DNA from: a virus
Strand: one strand, 5' to 3'
Virus genome (UHGV): UHGV-0134920
Length of the DNA stretch: 10,725 nt
Position numbers and translations under genes: made by a program
The notes under the pieces: generated by a model
Seen by the model: only the letters and a program-made list of their open reading frames with translations
The model's database searches: none
Told to the model about the DNA's origin: nothing
Shown: in pieces, positions 1,965-10,512 of the stretch
Layout: each line of letters opens with the position of its first letter
Numbering within the stretch: the stretch's first letter is position 1

Positions 1965-1996
1965 CGGGTATCACAGATATGACAAACACGAAAAAA

Positions 1997-2023
1997 GCGG
2001 CCCCGATATGGAGCCGCCTTTCT
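1997..2023. terminator. weak candidate bidirectional terminator between convergent alpA and minus-strand genes
   Basis: 5-bp GC stem GCGGC (1997-2001) / GCCGC (2013-2017), preceded by A6 (1991-1996) and followed by CTTTCT. Short stem, so weak. Confidence 0.25.
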
Positions 2024-2112
2024 GAACAATTAACCCGCTGCGCCTTATGTGTATGTGATCCCAAACATAAGCACGGGGATGATAGCCGCTATCAGGCTGG
2101 TGGGCAATGCAA

Positions 2113-2301
2113 TCAGTCTGGTTCAGTTCGTTGCCATACCTGCAATGAGCGCTTTTCCCTGTACTCTTTAAGGAATTGCTCAAGGGCAAAAGCACATGGC
2201 GCGAATCTTTCTGATTCATGCTCTATCTTTCTGCGCCGTCTTTTCCGTGCCGGTGATAATGTTTTGGTCAATTCTTTATCGGTCATTGTGTTGTCCTGCA
2301 T
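2113..2301 (-). CDS. doubtful small Arg/Lys-rich ORF (62 aa) downstream of the minus-strand regulator
   Basis: Sits in the only sizeable gap without a + strand gene (1965-2343), upstream of the candidate terminator on the minus strand. No convincing RBS; contains RKRRRRK. Confidence 0.2.
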   Translation of the reverse strand: MQDNTMTDKELTKTLSPARKRRRRKIEHESERFAPCAFALEQFLKEYREKRSLQVWQRTEPD

Positions 2302-2343
2302 AGCAATGCGCCGTAATACCTTACACCACGGCGCTGGTGATGG

Positions 2344-2649
2344 TTACTCCTGCTCTTTGGCCTTGCGGCGCTGTAGTTCTTCACGAGCGATGGCGATAAG
2401 TTGCCCGAGTTCTTCCGTAGCTTTAATACCAATTTTTTCCACTTGCGCCAATGCATCGAGAGAAGAAATCAGAGGATTTTCACTGCTTCCTTCTGCCTGG
2501 CGGCGGGCGATCTCCCCGCGCATGGCGGTTACTATGAATCCGGCGTTGCTTTCGCCGTCCAGTTTTACGGATTCCATGCCATCAAAAGCATCATGTGGGA
2601 TACGAATTGAAATCTGTTTTGATTTGTCGTTGATAGTGTTTTTTGCCAT
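2344..2649 (-). CDS. putative DNA-binding regulator (possibly ribbon-helix-helix), candidate island repressor
   Basis: 101 aa from ATG (reverse complement of 2647-2649) with GGAGAA RBS just upstream on the minus strand. N-terminal KQISIRIP segment is compatible with an RHH beta-strand. Divergent from the Icd/Ash/primase operon and adjacent to palindromic operators. The ORF-track start at 2688 is probably an upstream in-frame extension. Confidence 0.6.
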   Translation of the reverse strand: MAKNTINDKSKQISIRIPHDAFDGMESVKLDGESNAGFIVTAMRGEIARRQAEGSSENPLISSLDALAQVEKIGIKATEELGQLIAIAREELQRRKAKEQE

Positions 2650-2671
2650 GTGCATTCTCCTAAACAAAAGA

Positions 2672-2747
2672 TGTGATTCAGTATACACAAAAAAGAATCA
2701 CAAAAAACACTTGATCTGTGATTCAGTTGAATTTAATTTAAATCACA
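2672..2747. promoter_or_regulatory. divergent promoter/operator region with two related palindromic operators
   Basis: TGTGATTCAGT at 2672-2682 pairs with GAATCACA at 2695-2702; TGTGATTCAGT at 2717-2727 pairs with AATCACA at 2741-2747. GTATAC at 2681-2686 could give a minus-strand -10-like TATACT. The region lies between divergent start codons at 2649 (-) and 2837 (+). Confidence 0.6.
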
Positions 2748-2836
2748 CCTCAGTAAGAGGATGTAAACGACAACGCCCCGAACTGTTTGCGGCAGTAGCG
2801 GGGCGTCTAACCAAACCGTTAACAGGAGTAACGATT

Positions 2837-3034
2837 ATGGCTGGAACACAGCATACCCCACGTCTGGCGCACACACAAACTGCCTTTGTGTGGCGTTTTC
2901 TGGCACTGAGTGCCGGAGAATCTCAAATCATCCACGTAACCGCCTGGACGGAACGCGAAGCGCGTAGCCGTTGCCCGTCCGGTTGTGTTGCTGTATTCGC
3001 TGCCCGTATTCGCCAGGGGTCACATCATGCGTAA
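2837..3034 (+). CDS. Icd-like small protein (host cell division inhibitor-like family of P4-like elements)
   Basis: 65 aa; AGGAG RBS at 2824-2828; sequence FVWRF...TEREAR...ARIRQG recalled as the Icd-like signature (from memory, unverified). The upstream part of the 351-aa track ORF is rejected. Confidence 0.6.
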   Translation: MAGTQHTPRLAHTQTAFVWRFLALSAGESQIIHVTAWTEREARSRCPSGCVAVFAARIRQGSHHA

Positions 3035-4160: not shown

Positions 4161-4460
4161 ATGAAACTTAAATATTCTGGCTTAACTGCCAGTGGCAAAA
4201 CTCGCACTAAATTCATGCGCGGTGATATTTACCGCGACCAGTACGGCGGCACGGTAATGATTAAGGGCGTGGAGGAACGGCGCGTAACCTACCGTCGTGA
4301 AGGCTACGAATATGATTGCGTGATGCCTGTTTATCAGTTCGATCGTGATTTTTCTCTGGTGCAGGCCGTACCGCGTAACGTGCCCACCAGCAGGGAGAAA
4401 GCACGCGCCAATATTCAGGAAATAAAAAAGATGCTTAACGTATTCAGGGGTAAAAAATGA
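4161..4460 (+). CDS. hypothetical protein (99 aa)
   Basis: GGAG at 4146-4149 upstream; stop overlaps the primase start (ATGA at 4457-4460), indicating operon coupling with the replication gene. Confidence 0.5.
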   Translation: MKLKYSGLTASGKTRTKFMRGDIYRDQYGGTVMIKGVEERRVTYRREGYEYDCVMPVYQFDRDFSLVQAVPRNVPTSREKARANIQEIKKMLNVFRGKK

Positions 4461-6205
4461 AACTGGCACCGAACGTAAAAAAACAGCCACGCGGAATAAA
4501 ACACAAAGACACAGAGGTAATTATTTTCGCGGGTAGTGATGCCTGGTCGCACGCGAAACAATGGCAGGAGCAGGATGGCCCCGCATCCGGCGATAATGTG
4601 CCGCCTGTGTGGCTTGGGCCAAATCAGCTTGCCGAACTTGATGCACTGAAAATTGTTCCGGATGGAAAAAAACGCGTAAGGCTGTACCAGGCCGGAGAAC
4701 TGGATTTGGTGGAGACCAAAAAGATTGGTCAGAAGCTGGCGGCGGCAGATATTCAGGACGCAAATTTTTACCCCGAAGGAATGCACGTCCAGAAGTGTGA
4801 AAACTGGCGGCGCTATCTGAATGCTGAGCGTGAAAATATTGCCGCAGGGCTTACCATGCCGGAGCAGAAAAATACGCAACTGGCACAAATGGCAGACAGT
4901 GAGCGCGCACAGATGCTTGCTGGTCGATTTGATGGCGTTTGTGTGCATCCGGAAAGTGAAATCGTTCACGTATGGCGCGGCGGGGTATGGTGTCCGGTCA
5001 GCACAATGGAACTTAGCCGCGAAATGGTGGCGATCTATTCAGAGCACAGGGCCACTTTCAGCAAGCGCGTAATCAATAACGCCGTGGAAGCGTTAAAAGT
5101 TATTGCCGAACCAATGGGCGAGCCGTCCGGCGATTTGCTGCCGTTCGCCAATGGTGCGCTTGACCTGAAAACGGGGGAATTTTCCCCGCACACGCCGGAG
5201 AACTGGATCACCACGCACAACGGCATTGAGTACACGCCACCAGCACCAGGGGAGAATATCTGCGACAACGCGCCAAACTTTCATAAATGGCTTGAGCACG
5301 CAGCCGGAAAAGACCCGCGCAAGATGATGCGTATATGTGCCGCGCTGTACATGATTATGGCGAACCGGTACGACTGGCAGATGTTTATTGAGGCCACCGG
5401 AGACGGCGGGAGCGGCAAAAGTACATTCACCCACATCGCCAGCCTTTTAGCGGGGAAACAAAACACGGTAAGCGCGGAAATGACATCGCTTGATGATGCT
5501 GGTGGGCGTGCGCAGGTTGTCGGGAGTCGTCTTATCGTCCTGGCAGACCAGCCGAAATATACAGGCGAAGGCACGGGCATCAAGAAAATCACGGGCGGCG
5601 ACCCCGTGGAAATCAACCCGAAATATGAAAAGCGTTTCACTACGGTAATCAGGGCGGTGGTGCTGGCGACCAATAACAACCCGATGATATTCACCGAACG
5701 GGCCGGAGGCGTGTCACGTCGTCGGGTTATTTTCCGCTTCGACAATATCGTAAGCGAGGCAGAAAAAGACAGGGAGCTACCGGAAAAGATCGCGGCTGAA
5801 ATCCCAGTCATTATCCGCCGCTTGCTGGCGAACTTTACCGACCCTGAGAAGGCACGGGCTTTACTACTGGAACAGCGTGACGGTGATGAAGCTCTGGCAA
5901 TAAAGCAACAGACGGATCCGGTTATTGAGTTTTGCCAGTTCCTGAATTTTCTGGAGGAAGCGCGCGGCCTGATGATGGGTGGCGGTGGCGATTCAGTGAA
6001 GTACACGACCAGGAACAGCCTTTACCGCGTCTATCTGGCGTTTATGGCATACGCCGGAAGGAACAAGCCGCTAAACGTGGCTGAGTTCAGCAAAGCTATG
6101 AAGCCAGCGGCGAAAGTTTACGGGCATGAATATATTACGCGGAAAGTCAATGGAGTTACGCAGACTAACGCAATAACAACAGACGATTGCGACGCGTTTT
6201 TATAA
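4457..6205 (+). CDS. replication initiator, P4 alpha C-terminal-like SF3 helicase/NTPase (primase-helicase family)
   Basis: 582 aa; Walker A GDGGSGKST, Walker B-like RLIVLADQP and SF3 motif C VVLATNNNP. Followed immediately by an iteron array. A catalytic primase (toprim/AEP) domain cannot be confirmed by eye. Confidence 0.85.
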   Translation: MKLAPNVKKQPRGIKHKDTEVIIFAGSDAWSHAKQWQEQDGPASGDNVPPVWLGPNQLAELDALKIVPDGKKRVRLYQAGELDLVETKKIGQKLAAADIQDANFYPEGMHVQKCENWRRYLNAERENIAAGLTMPEQKNTQLAQMADSERAQMLAGRFDGVCVHPESEIVHVWRGGVWCPVSTMELSREMVAIYSEHRATFSKRVINNAVEALKVIAEPMGEPSGDLLPFANGALDLKTGEFSPHTPENWITTHNGIEYTPPAPGENICDNAPNFHKWLEHAAGKDPRKMMRICAALYMIMANRYDWQMFIEATGDGGSGKSTFTHIASLLAGKQNTVSAEMTSLDDAGGRAQVVGSRLIVLADQPKYTGEGTGIKKITGGDPVEINPKYEKRFTTVIRAVVLATNNNPMIFTERAGGVSRRRVIFRFDNIVSEAEKDRELPEKIAAEIPVIIRRLLANFTDPEKARALLLEQRDGDEALAIKQQTDPVIEFCQFLNFLEEARGLMMGGGGDSVKYTTRNSLYRVYLAFMAYAGRNKPLNVAEFSKAMKPAAKVYGHEYITRKVNGVTQTNAITTDDCDAFL

Positions 6206-6213
6206 TTTTTTGC

Positions 6214-6445
6214 AAAAGCCCTCTACCTCCTCTACCTGAAAGGAATAAATGCATATTATTCAATATGATAAGTGGGTAGATGGCCAGGTAGAAGGCTAAT
6301 AAAAACCCTCTACCTCTTCTACATGATTTTATCAATTCCAGGTAGACAGGTAGAGGTCTGGTAGAAGGGGATTAAAAGCCCTCTACCATGCTGAAAGGTG
6401 CGCCATTGCTGGATTTTTGCAGTGCTTGGTAGAAGGGGTAGAGGG
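6214..6445. repeat. iteron array, candidate replication origin
   Basis: CTCTACC at 6221-6227, 6230-6236, 6308-6314 and 6381-6387; reverse-orientation GGTAGA(G/A) at 6275-6280, 6287-6292, 6341-6346, 6349-6355, 6360-6365, 6428-6433 and 6437-6443. Longer unit AAAAGCCCTCTACC at 6214-6227 and 6374-6387, with a one-mismatch copy at 6301-6314. AT-rich stretch at 6241-6270. Confidence 0.6.
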
Positions 6446-6491
6446 AGGGAGGCACAACTCAAAACTTTTTAAACGAGGGGGGTAAAAATAA

Positions 6492-6806
6492 ATGCGCATA
6501 CATCAAAATAACTTAACAAACATATCAGCCGAAAACATGAATCAGGGGCGACAAATGGCCATAATTCACAGAGACAGAACACAGGCAAAATATAAAGCGT
6601 TAGACATGACAGAGCTTTCCCTAAAGGTGGCAATCAGAACGATAGACCGCCACACGCGGGAAGGATACGCGAAGGAACATCCCGACCTGATAAGCGCATT
6701 CATGACCACGGCGGCGGCAAACTTTGCCACGCTGACAGAACGGGAGATTGCCGAAGCGGAACAGGTAACAACCATCAACGTTAAAACCGGAGAGCAGACA
6801 GCATGA
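6492..6806 (+). CDS. hypothetical protein (104 aa)
   Basis: GAGGGGGG RBS at 6475-6482; stop overlaps the ssb start (ATGA at 6803-6806). Alternative internal starts at 6536 and 6555. Confidence 0.5.
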   Translation: MRIHQNNLTNISAENMNQGRQMAIIHRDRTQAKYKALDMTELSLKVAIRTIDRHTREGYAKEHPDLISAFMTTAAANFATLTEREIAEAEQVTTINVKTGEQTA

Positions 6807-7213
6807 CAGCACAGATAGCAGCTTACGGGCGGCTGGTGGACGACCCGCAGGTAAAACAGACCAGTAAGGGCACACCGATGACGCTGGCGCGTATGGCGGT
6901 ATCGCTGCCATGCAGCCAGGCACAGGATGGACAGGCGACGTTATGGCTATCGGTCATCGCATTTGGTAAGCAGGCCGACTTCCTGGCTAAACATCAAAAA
7001 GGCGACGTTGCCAGCGTATCCGGCACGATGCAGGTCAGCCAGTGGACCGGACAGAACGGGGAAACGCGGCAGGGCTGGCAGGTTATTGCAGACAGCGTAA
7101 TCAGTGCCCGTGCGGCACGTCCTGGCGGGAACAGACGCAAGACCACAGGCACACAGGGTAATCAGCCACCAGCGGGAGGCGATGCCCCTTACGGTGATGA
7201 TATTCCGTTCTGA
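6803..7213 (+). CDS. ssb: single-stranded DNA-binding protein
   Basis: 136 aa; OB-fold SSB pattern (AYGRLVDDPQVKQTSKG...WLSVIAFGKQADFLAKHQKGDVASVSGTMQVSQW), Gly/Pro/Gln-rich linker and acidic C-terminal tip ...GDDIPF typical of bacterial and phage SSBs. Confidence 0.85.
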   Translation: MTAQIAAYGRLVDDPQVKQTSKGTPMTLARMAVSLPCSQAQDGQATLWLSVIAFGKQADFLAKHQKGDVASVSGTMQVSQWTGQNGETRQGWQVIADSVISARAARPGGNRRKTTGTQGNQPPAGGDAPYGDDIPF

Positions 7214-7223
7214 GGGGGTGAGG

Positions 7224-7472
7224 ATGGTACATGACCGCATAGCGGAGGAACTCGAGGCAAAAGGCTTTTACCGGAGGGCGGCGGCACGATGGGGTGAAGT
7301 CATGCAACTGGTGGAGACAGACAAGGAACGGCATCAGGTTACGATGCGACGGCTGGAATGTTCCAGGAAGGCACAGAGGCCACCGGAGCCGCCAACGGAG
7401 AACTATGCAGACCTGAGAAATGCAGTAAATCGCACTTACGCAGACATGGGGCTGAGCAAATTAGCAGAGTAG
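7224..7472 (+). CDS. possible PerC-family-like transcriptional regulator (tentative)
   Basis: 82 aa from ATG 7224 (alternative GTG 7218). Motif EELEAKGFYRRAAARW resembles the conserved PerC/Pch segment as recalled. The N-terminal part of the 122-aa track ORF overlaps ssb out of frame and is rejected. Confidence 0.4.
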   Translation: MVHDRIAEELEAKGFYRRAAARWGEVMQLVETDKERHQVTMRRLECSRKAQRPPEPPTENYADLRNAVNRTYADMGLSKLAE

Positions 7473-7726: not shown

Positions 7727-7933
7727 ATGGCTGAAGAGAAAAAAGGCGGTGTTTCGGTGTACATAAGCCCCGACATCGTGAAGGCGCTCAAGGAACGCCA
7801 CCAGCAGAACGTAAAAGCAGGCATTGCGGCAGGACTTGATCCGCTGGCGATGGTTGAGCCGTCAACAGGCTGGCAGGTACGCGCCTATTTACGCGCGGCG
7901 CTGGGTATGAATCAGGTTCACGGGGGTGAATAA
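7727..7933 (+). CDS. hypothetical protein (68 aa), first gene of the head operon
   Basis: AGAGGA RBS at 7711-7716; stop TAA overlaps the capsid gene ATG (7931-7935). Confidence 0.5.
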   Translation: MAEEKKGGVSVYISPDIVKALKERHQQNVKAGIAAGLDPLAMVEPSTGWQVRAYLRAALGMNQVHGGE

Positions 7934-8988
7934 TGACAGTAAAAGCAATAGCACTTAACACTAACCAGCTTTTTGCGTACCTGAATCGCGAGGATATTGC
8001 GGAATTTAAATTCAGTCCGCTGTTTACCGCGCTGTTTTTCCCGAACGTGGCGACATTCAACACACAGGACATCATGTTAGATAACCTGGATATTGAAGAA
8101 GTCACTATGTCGGCGTTTTGTTCGCCTATGGTGGGTAGCCAGGTTCAGCGCGATAAAGGGTACGAAACAAGCATTATTCGCCCTGGCTACATGAAGCCAA
8201 AACACGAAATCGATCCATTAAAAACAATAATGCGCATGGCTGGAGAAGATCCAGCACAGCTTAACGACCCTACCTACCGCCGTATGCGCCTGATTACTGG
8301 CAACATGCGCCGCCAGATAAACGCCATTAAAGCGCGCGAGGAATGGCTGGCGGTAAATGCGGTAACGACCGGAAAAAACATCATTGAGGGCGAAGGCATA
8401 GAGCGCTATGAAATCGACTGGAAGATACCGGAAAAAAACATCATAGAGCAGGCCGACGGTAAAAAATGGTCAGAGCAGGACAAAGACATACACGACCCAA
8501 TCTATGACATTGAGCTATACGCAGATCAGGCAGGTTGCCCCGCAAACGTCATGATTATGGGCGTTGATGTATGGCGCATGTTACGCAGCTTTAAAAAATT
8601 CCGTGAACTGTACGATCTCTCCCGTGGTTCAGAATCCGCCGCAGAGCTGGCATGTAAAAACCTGGGCGAAGTGGTGAGCTTTAAAGGCTATCTTGGTGAT
8701 CTGGCCCTTATCGTCTATTCCGGCAAATACACTGACAGCGACGGCACAGAAAAATATTTCCTTGAGCCTGATTTGCTGGTCCTGGGCAACACCAACAATA
8801 AAGGGCTGGTGGCCTATGGTGCGATTATGGAACAGGAAGCGGTAAGAACGGGCGCAACGCAAAACATGTTTTACCCGAAAAACTGGATTGAGGACGGCGA
8901 TCCGGCGATTGAGTACGTGCAGACGCACAGCGCACCGCAGCCGGTTCCGGCAGATATTCGCAAATTTGTTACCGTCAAAATTGGTTAA
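7933..8988 (+). CDS. major capsid protein, lambda gpE family
   Basis: 351 aa; colinear similarity to lambda gpE as recalled (FKFSPLF..LFF; RPGYMKPKHEIDP; EDPAQLNDPTYRRMRLITGNMR; KGYLGDLALIVYSGKY; VLGNT; YPKNW; SAPQPVPAD). Confidence 0.9.
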   Translation: MTVKAIALNTNQLFAYLNREDIAEFKFSPLFTALFFPNVATFNTQDIMLDNLDIEEVTMSAFCSPMVGSQVQRDKGYETSIIRPGYMKPKHEIDPLKTIMRMAGEDPAQLNDPTYRRMRLITGNMRRQINAIKAREEWLAVNAVTTGKNIIEGEGIERYEIDWKIPEKNIIEQADGKKWSEQDKDIHDPIYDIELYADQAGCPANVMIMGVDVWRMLRSFKKFRELYDLSRGSESAAELACKNLGEVVSFKGYLGDLALIVYSGKYTDSDGTEKYFLEPDLLVLGNTNNKGLVAYGAIMEQEAVRTGATQNMFYPKNWIEDGDPAIEYVQTHSAPQPVPADIRKFVTVKIG

Positions 8989-9000
8989 CGGGGGGATTCT

Positions 9001-9336
9001 ATGGACACTCCATACATTGAGTTATTTGCAGGCAGTCAGCAGGTATCCACGACGCTGGTACATTTTGCCGCTGATGCTGGCGTTATTCAGGAATTTACCC
9101 CGCTGATGCTGGCGGACAATGGCGAGTTTAAGCCGTGGGATGGTCAGGAATCTGGCAAGGCTGTTTATCTGACTTCGTACCCCGTGGACACGTCAAAGCA
9201 GAAATCAGCACAGTGTTACAAGACGGGGATATTTAATATCGCCGCCGTAAACTGGCCTGAGAGCGCCGACACTGACGCGAAAAAATGCGCCGCCTTTGCG
9301 GGTTCTGGCGTATCCGTTCAGCCGCTGGCGCGATAA
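9001..9336 (+). CDS. head decoration protein, lambda gpD family
   Basis: 111 aa; matches to lambda gpD as recalled (TPLMLAD, KPWDG, YKTGIFN, WPESADTDAKKCAAFAGSG). Confidence 0.85.
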   Translation: MDTPYIELFAGSQQVSTTLVHFAADAGVIQEFTPLMLADNGEFKPWDGQESGKAVYLTSYPVDTSKQKSAQCYKTGIFNIAAVNWPESADTDAKKCAAFAGSGVSVQPLAR

Positions 9337-9824: not shown

Positions 9825-9858
9825 GGGCGGCGACCTCGCGGTTTTTCGCTATTTATGA
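9825..9858. other. lambda-type cos site (cosN core plus conserved flank)
   Basis: GGGCGGCGACCT at 9825-9836 equals the lambda 12-nt cohesive end as recalled. The next 22 nt CGCGGTTTTTCGCTATTTATGA (9837-9858) differ from the recalled lambda left-end CGCGGGTTTTCGCTATTTATGA at one position. Lies ~135 bp upstream of a Nu1-like gene, as in lambda. Confidence 0.7.
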
Positions 9859-9969: not shown

Positions 9970-10512
9970 ATGAAATCGCACCTGATGAACAAAAAAAACA
10001 TGGCGAAAAGCTGCCGTGTAAGTGCGACAGCGTTCGACAAGTGGGGAGTGACTCCCGTTGAACGTAAAGGCCGTGAGGCGTTTTACGATGTTGCCAGCGT
10101 GATAGACAATAGGGTTAACAATGCAATTAGCCAGCTTACAAACGACAAAGGCGATATTGATGATGATGAACTCTTACGAGTCAGGATCAGATTACTGACA
10201 GCACAGGCGGAGGCGCAGGAACTTAAAAACGAGCGCGATCGCGGTGACGTGATCGATACTGAGTTTTGCCTGTACGCGCTTTCAAAGCTGGCGAGTCAGA
10301 TTTCATCAATCATGGACAGCCTCCCGCTTACTATGCAAAGGAGCTTCCCACAGATTACCCCCGCCATGCTGGATAGGCTTAAAAGGGAAGTGGTTAAAGC
10401 CTGTAATGCCAGTGCCAGAGTTGCCGACAACCTCCCACAGATACTGGCTGATTACTTGAAAGAAACAACCGGAAACGTACCGGAAAAGTTGCAGCCGAAT
10501 AAAGATAAGTAA
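9970..10512 (+). CDS. terS: terminase small subunit, lambda Nu1-like with divergent N-terminal DNA-binding domain
   Basis: 180 aa (alternative start ATG 9985, MNKKN..., aligns better with the Nu1 N-terminus MEVNKKQ). C-terminal two thirds are similar to lambda Nu1 as recalled (RLLTAQAEAQELKNERDRGDVIDTEFCLYALSKLASQISSIMDSLPLTMQRSFPQ versus RLTRAQADAQELKNARDSAEVVETAFCTFVLSRIAGEIASILDGLPLSVQRRFPE). N-terminal ~55 aa are much less conserved. Confidence 0.8.
   Translation: MKSHLMNKKNMAKSCRVSATAFDKWGVTPVERKGREAFYDVASVIDNRVNNAISQLTNDKGDIDDDELLRVRIRLLTAQAEAQELKNERDRGDVIDTEFCLYALSKLASQISSIMDSLPLTMQRSFPQITPAMLDRLKREVVKACNASARVADNLPQILADYLKETTGNVPEKLQPNKDK

Follow-up and report, generated by a model that had tools for sequence, protein, structure and literature searches.

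The intergenic stretch 6206-6491 of the virus genome UHGV-0134920 is very probably the replication origin of a phage-inducible chromosomal island (PICI) of the EcCICFT073 type. The window, that is, the whole stretch of DNA that was analysed, is 10,725 nt long. An initial annotation, made from the letters of the DNA, had proposed a satellite origin bound by its own initiator, and this reading is supported both by a P4-type winged helix in the adjacent Rep protein and by homology to EcCICFT073. The literature already covers this type of origin, with its position and its combination of iterons and AT-rich DNA, and includes a test of a close relative; the finding is thus genuine but unremarkable. 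Two minor points appear to be new: the existence of two origin subtypes that co-vary with two binding-domain residues (with one exception), and a layout that resembles ori plus crr of phage P4.

The island and its iteron array

The window is a complete EcCICFT073-type PICI of E. coli, and all of its substantial genes lie on the + strand. Its main features, apart from the origin itself, are as follows.

2-1261, + strand: tyrosine integrase (int)
1758-1964, + strand: weak AlpA-like ORF (17.6 bits against a cut-off of 21)
1979-3034, + strand: 351-aa ORF, with an Icd-like domain limited to the C-terminus (residues 303-346)
4161-4460, + strand: DUF4222 protein
4457-6205, + strand: Rep (Pri-Rep), 582 aa, with D5_N, an SF3-type P-loop helicase (DUF5906) and a predicted C-terminal origin-binding domain
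5864-6202, + strand: winged-helix part of rep, predicted to bind the origin (Rep residues 470-582; 1KA8 matches and AlphaFold2 model)
6080-6082 and 6089-6091, + strand: codons of the subtype-specific Rep residues A542 and S545
6492-6806, + strand: first gene past the origin, hypothetical (phrog_1231), its start codon and Shine-Dalgarno sequence conserved with CFT073
6803-7213, + strand: SSB
7224-7472, + strand: PerC
7933-8988, + strand: lambda gpE-like capsid protein
9001-9336, + strand: gpD-like decoration protein
9825-9836: exact lambda-type cosN 12-mer GGGCGGCGACCT, 134 bp upstream of the Nu1-like ORF
9970-10512, + strand: Nu1-like protein (Phage_Nu1, E 2e-23)

A length of about 10 kb, an integrase, unidirectional genes, a helper-type cos site and a packaging gene are all present, and the match to an alpA-type regulator is weak. 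EcCICFT073 itself, the prototype PICI of Gram-negative bacteria, was located in the CFT073 chromosome (locus L006, 17931-28655), where the gene order is the same as in the window and where a capsid-like gene (c1499) and a decoration-like gene (c1500) are likewise found. Near-identical or related islands occupy several E. coli sites, for example the cspD/clpS interval and tRNA-Pro by yejM. According to PMC6739421, EcCICFT073 has two cos sites and encodes an Rpp protein by which the helper TerS is redirected; the window carries, beside the exact cosN, a copy with one mismatch inside rep (5593-5604). Short Icd-like genes or pseudogenes are annotated in related islands at the position of the ORF at 1979-3034, which may therefore be a fusion or an over-extended frame.

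The region between rep and the gene at 6492 is organized as follows.

6220-6236, + strand: left iteron pair, two direct copies of CCTCTACC (6220-6227 and 6229-6236; column entropy 0.00-0.03 bits among 64 origins)
6237-6274: AT-rich spacer, presumed DNA-unwinding element, 24% GC (core 6241-6270: 20%)
6275-6294, - strand: two inverted iterons facing the left pair, GGTAGATG (6275-6282) and GGTAGAAG (6287-6294)
6307-6322, + strand: iteron CCTCTACC (6307-6314) and degenerate CTTCTACA (6315-6322)
6341-6367, - strand: three inverted iterons, GGTAGACA (6341), GGTAGAGG (6349) and GGTAGAAG (6360)
6380-6387, + strand: iteron CCTCTACC, opening a candidate crr-like half (46 and 55 bp to the next pair)
6392-6412: conserved non-iteron block CTGAAAGGTGCGCCATTGCTG, from the conservation profile
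6428-6444, - strand: right-hand inverted pair, GGTAGAAG (6428-6435) and GGTAGAGG (6437-6444)
6460-6474: invariant block CAAAACTTTTTAAAC beyond the last iteron pair

The 10.7-kb window contains 11 copies of the hexamer TCTACC, every one of them within the 221 bp from 6222 to 6442. The + strand carries four (6222, 6231, 6309, 6382) and the - strand seven (6275, 6287, 6341, 6349, 6360, 6428, 6437), while a twelfth site is degenerate (TCTACA, 6317-6322); along the array the orientations read ++ AT -- ++ --- + --. Six of the array copies extend to CTCTACC and nine to YTCTACC. The first 8-bp iteron begins 15 bp beyond the end of the rep stop codon at 6205, and some 50 bp separate the end of the array from the next conserved start codon (6492). 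The earlier description of about eleven copies of CTCTACC or its complement within some 230 bp, directly downstream of the initiator gene, is thus borne out, as is a longer repeated unit, AAAAGCCCTCTACC, which is present in exact form at 6214 and 6374 and with one mismatch (AAAAACCCTCTACC) at 6301. So, too, is an AT-rich stretch at 6241-6270, where the GC content is 20% compared to 50% across the window. Only three 30-mers of the window are less stable than that at 6243-6273, whose dG of -31.6 departs by about 3 sd from the mean of -42.8 (sd 3.6).

Repeats of this kind could in principle belong to a host-wide intergenic family, serve as a packaging (cos/pac) site or be a chance cluster, but the probability of these readings is negligible, as only the repetitiveness itself speaks for them. 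By chance, 2.6 copies of TCTACC are expected in the whole window, and none of 200 dinucleotide-preserving shuffles reached the observed 11. The exact cosN is 3.4 kb away from the array, next to the Nu1-like gene. A common intergenic repeat family of the host, named in the initial annotation as the finding that would count against an origin, was looked for and did not emerge: the region is present in 565 of 5426 complete E. coli genomes, with a median of one per genome, always on the chromosome and beside a primase-family gene. A survey of 177 kb of E. coli DNA showed no further TCTACC cluster, and in 85 kb of the CFT073 chromosome outside the island the hexamer has a density of 0.2 per kb, with at most 2 per 250 bp. 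A structured RNA was also considered and rejected; no Rfam family accounts for the array, the sole hit being a plant miRNA model at E 0.48.

Comparison with known origins

Origins of PICIs from Gram-negative bacteria (E. coli) lie directly 3' of pri-rep and have an AT-rich region between two iteron sets (PMC6092414, Fillol-Salom 2018). In the window, the array likewise lies directly 3' of pri-rep, and the iterons at 6220-6236 (+,+) and 6275-6294 (-,-) bracket a spacer of 20-24% GC. The intergenic region is 75% identical to its CFT073 counterpart over 93% of the query, with TCTACC cores at matching offsets. When the rep-ori region of EcCICFT073 was cloned into a temperature-sensitive plasmid, colonies formed at 44 °C (PMC6092414, Fig. 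2b); in the same assay the rep mutant gave 0 colonies, and deletion of ori gave significantly fewer, abolition not being reported (PMC6092414). Given a Rep protein that is 90% identical, a homologous intergenic region and this published test in CFT073, the array can be considered an allele of a published and tested origin type.

The resemblance to EcCICFT073 extends to the same island architecture and to the 11 TCTACC cores, which stand at nearly the same offsets with the AT-rich spacer following the first pair. The two origins differ, however, in several details. Immediately 5' of the core, the window has CY and CFT073 has TR. The fourth site has offset 65- in the window (inverted and shifted) but 77+ in CFT073, and the window has one additional copy, at 6341. 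Finally, Rep residues 542/545 are A/S in the window and N/G in CFT073.

A second reading would make the repeats mainly a transcriptional operator, bound by Rep or a different protein of the island, either for the SSB/PerC/capsid operon or for auto-regulation, with no origin function. The array is indeed placed between two co-oriented genes, about 50 bp short of the next start codon, and initiators often auto-regulate via their own iterons. Against this, no sigma-70-like promoter or terminator is predicted on the + strand from 5900 to 6900, a 20%-GC spacer surrounded by twelve sites of both orientations is the layout of an origin rather than of an operator, and the homologous region of CFT073 acts as an origin (PMC6092414). 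A purely regulatory array is therefore highly improbable, though a regulatory side-role of Rep binding is possible. The SSB gene downstream of the array counts in favour of the origin reading.

Other replicons offer partial parallels to an origin at this position. Plasmid iterons of the RepA/pi type (pPS10, R6K, RK2, F) are direct repeats of about 17-22 bp, and their initiators are non-helicase WH1-WH2 proteins that depend on DnaA and on DnaB-DnaC. The general plan is shared with such plasmids, in that the element encodes its own initiator and has repeated binding sites beside an AT-rich unwinding element, but the sites of the island are of 6-8 bp and occur in both orientations, and its initiator is itself an SF3 helicase. 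A DnaA-dependent origin was rejected, as the region 6150-6550 has no DnaA box. In the SaPIs, origins consist of 6-12 short iterons right after rep, with an AT-rich centre and no fewer than 2 iterons to either side, facing opposite ways (PMC9371898), and Rep is a hexameric helicase that loads itself and binds these iterons through a C-terminal winged helix. The window array has this SaPI-type organization of penta- or hexanucleotide iterons, and its Rep resembles SaPI Rep in having an SF3-like helicase core, which matches PriRep5, and a winged helix at the C-terminus. It differs from the SaPI origins in that no DNA homology is detectable, the array is longer and tripartite, the host is Gram-negative and the origin-binding domain is of the P4 type.

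The Rep initiator

The Pfam domains of Rep are D5_N, DUF5906 (the SF3 P-loop core) and Pox_D5. Its 90% identity to EcCICFT073 Pri-Rep is interrupted mostly in the first ~140-150 residues, where the divergence is concentrated. A search of solved structures related the helicase core to SaPI5 PriRep5 (PDB 7OLA, E 2.6e-14), while residues 486-574 matched the phage P4 origin-binding domain 1KA8 with phmmer (E 2.6e-5). The C-terminal domain belongs to a small family, with 62 clusters among 1.84 billion representatives. As a homologue search with full-length Rep returned only E. coli proteins at least 98% identical, the C-terminal cluster representatives were used for modelling, in an alignment of 22 sequences that represent 50% clusters. 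The resulting AlphaFold2 model of the C-terminal domain has a pLDDT of 85.9, and its sole significant fold match in the PDB is again 1KA8 (E 6e-8, TM 0.85, rmsd 1.8 Å). Rep is a helicase-initiator with a winged helix of the P4 alpha origin-binding type, and binding of the iterons by this domain is predicted from homology.

Residues 1-~140/150 of Rep gave no match to a primase family (Toprim or Prim-Pol), and the similarity to P4 alpha begins at residue 141. With no recognizable primase domain at the N-terminus, priming is left unexplained, and host DnaG may be needed. The database name 'DNA primase family protein' is perhaps misleading, given this primase-less N-terminus (4457-4876).

From these features a course of replication can be proposed. 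Induction of the island by a helper phage would lead to production of Rep (4457-6205), whose C-terminal winged helix, judging from homology, would bind the 8-bp CYTCTACC iterons. The iteron groups converge, the first of them bracketing the 20%-GC spacer, as is seen in the sequence. By analogy with SaPI Rep (PMC9371898) and P4 alpha, Rep would melt the spacer at 6237-6274 and load itself as hexameric SF3-type helicase rings, one on each side; the first two iteron pairs converge on the spacer, an orientation that agrees with oppositely directed loading of two rings. Replication would then yield concatemers to be packaged from the cos site at about 9825.

Conservation, subtypes and the layout of phage P4

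Complete E. coli genomes and 80 IMG/VR contigs provided 64 distinct origin sequences, and all of these have 9-12 TCTAC cores at almost fixed offsets. The mean column entropy of the hexamers is 0.30 bits, compared to 0.75 bits for the other columns in 6210-6450 (Mann-Whitney p = 3.6e-9). Two blocks that are not iterons, CTGAAAG..GCGCCATT.CTG (6392-6412) and CAAAACTTTTTAAAC (6460-6474), are conserved to about the same degree as the iterons. Among the 64, the inverted iteron at 6341-6346 (GGTAGAC) is found only in the window and its 99.5%-identical twin (L001).

More distant relatives retain the arrangement with a different repeat. A scan of species-representative genomes for Rep gave 3 loci, two of them distant relatives, and the proteins of Serratia aquatilis (L008), Morganella morganii (L009) and the induced element vB_KppS-Ant (L099) are 41-52% identical to Rep. 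In all three, an array follows rep immediately, and the number, order and orientation of sites are retained together with the AT-rich spacer, but TCTACC is replaced by TGTTCAC or TGTTCAT. Such a concerted change of all copies as the initiator diverges is the hallmark of sites to which an initiator binds. In Pasteurella phage Pmp8, which encodes a Rep homologue of 33% identity, no iteron array occurs in the 436 bp after that gene (L100, 2665-3100), where there is a single TGTTCAC. The Pmp8 origin is perhaps elsewhere, or the linear record is perhaps cut at that point.

Within E. coli, the origins fall into two subtypes. Subtype A, that of the window, has iterons CYTCTACC at offsets 0+ 9+ 53- 65- 87+ 96+ 127- 138- 160+ 206- 215-. 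Subtype B, found in CFT073 and Nissle 1917, has TRTCTACC at offsets 0+ 9+ 55- 77+ 88+ 97+ 128- 139- 161+ 207- 216-; here the second inverted iteron (6287 in the window) is swapped for a + strand copy about 10 bp further on. Over the last 117 codons of rep, fixed differences between the subtypes occur only at residues 542 (A/N) and 545 (S/G), and both are non-synonymous. In the AlphaFold2 model these residues are in the first turn of the third helix, just ahead of the beta wing. Of 69 distinct combinations of origin and Rep, 38 pair subtype A with A542/S545, 30 pair subtype B with N542/G545, and one is an exception. This sole recombinant (L057, IMGVR_UViG_3300029303_000153) joins a subtype B origin to the subtype A residues A542/S545, and could reflect natural hybridization, cross-compatibility or chimeric metagenome assembly. 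The association with subtype jumps at codon 541, and several synonymous sites from there downstream to the stop show almost the same strength of association (r2 up to 0.90). This means that linkage is inseparable from co-adaptation, and the co-variation is no proof of specificity.

Phage P4 provides the other comparison, using the ori, crr and alpha data annotated in GenBank X51522. The origin-binding domain of alpha (1KA8) shares its fold with that of Rep, and the helicase part is 40% identical, but alpha has an N-terminal primase part that is absent from Rep. In P4, the array immediately 3' of alpha is crr, and ori is 4.5 kb away; the window array thus occupies the position of crr. The sites of P4 ori (0+ 10+ 54- 75+ 86+ 96+) are nevertheless laid out much like the first six of CFT073 (0+ 9+ 55- 77+ 88+ 97+), with an AT-rich spacer at the same place in P4 ori, Serratia, Morganella and vB_KppS-Ant. 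The last three sites are spaced like a crr unit (+, 44 bp, -, 9 bp, -) and have an A-run/T-run motif beyond them; the distances are 44 and 53 bp in the crr unit and 46 and 55 bp in the window. A motif of A and T runs similar to CAAAACTTTTTAAAC also follows the last inverted pair in P4 crr, Serratia and Morganella. On the other hand, the P4 type I iterons are TGTTCACC while the core in the window is TCTACC, and P4 has separate ori and crr, both required and crr duplicated, where the window has one contiguous array. At the level of DNA, neither P4 ori nor crr resembles the window significantly (z below 1), and only the layout is conserved.

These similarities also bear on whether the array is only a crr-like, cis-acting enhancer bound by Rep, with strand opening and initiation at another site. 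The P4 array at the same position is crr, so that position alone is no proof of initiation, and the second half of the window array has the spacing of a crr unit. However, the whole island is contained in the window, and it has no other TCTACC hexamer or second cluster. In addition, the first half is laid out like P4 ori, AT-rich spacer included, its counterparts in relatives align to P4 ori, and the rep-ori fragment of CFT073 was by itself sufficient for replication (PMC6092414). An enhancer with no initiation of its own is accordingly very unlikely, and an origin remains the preferred reading.

Among relatives with the P4 iteron, alignment to P4 ori gave z = 12.7 and 22 for the first half of the array, and alignment to the crr unit gave z = 5.6 and 9.7 for the second. 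The two layouts stand side by side after rep in Serratia (4268-4567) and vB_KppS-Ant (2653-2950), with the iteron TGTTCAC(C), and this suggests that PICI-type origins may be fused versions of ori plus crr. A more comprehensive proposal is that the PICI origin is a compact fusion of an ori-like half (6220-6322) and a crr-like half (~6341-6474), and that CYTCTACC with A542/S545 and TRTCTACC with N542/G545 form matched specificity groups. As a combined statement this is tentative, and is somewhat doubtful at present.

The array marks the cis-acting site for amplification of the island after induction by a helper phage. Since origins of this type are published, and a replicon with 90% identity has been tested, the finding adds little to what is known of them. 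It is of relevance to the annotation of satellites and to the engineering of PICIs as delivery vehicles. The co-variation of the subtypes and the ori-plus-crr layout are small leads that could guide specificity-swap experiments. Matched specificity groups, if real, would allow co-resident islands to replicate independently of each other.
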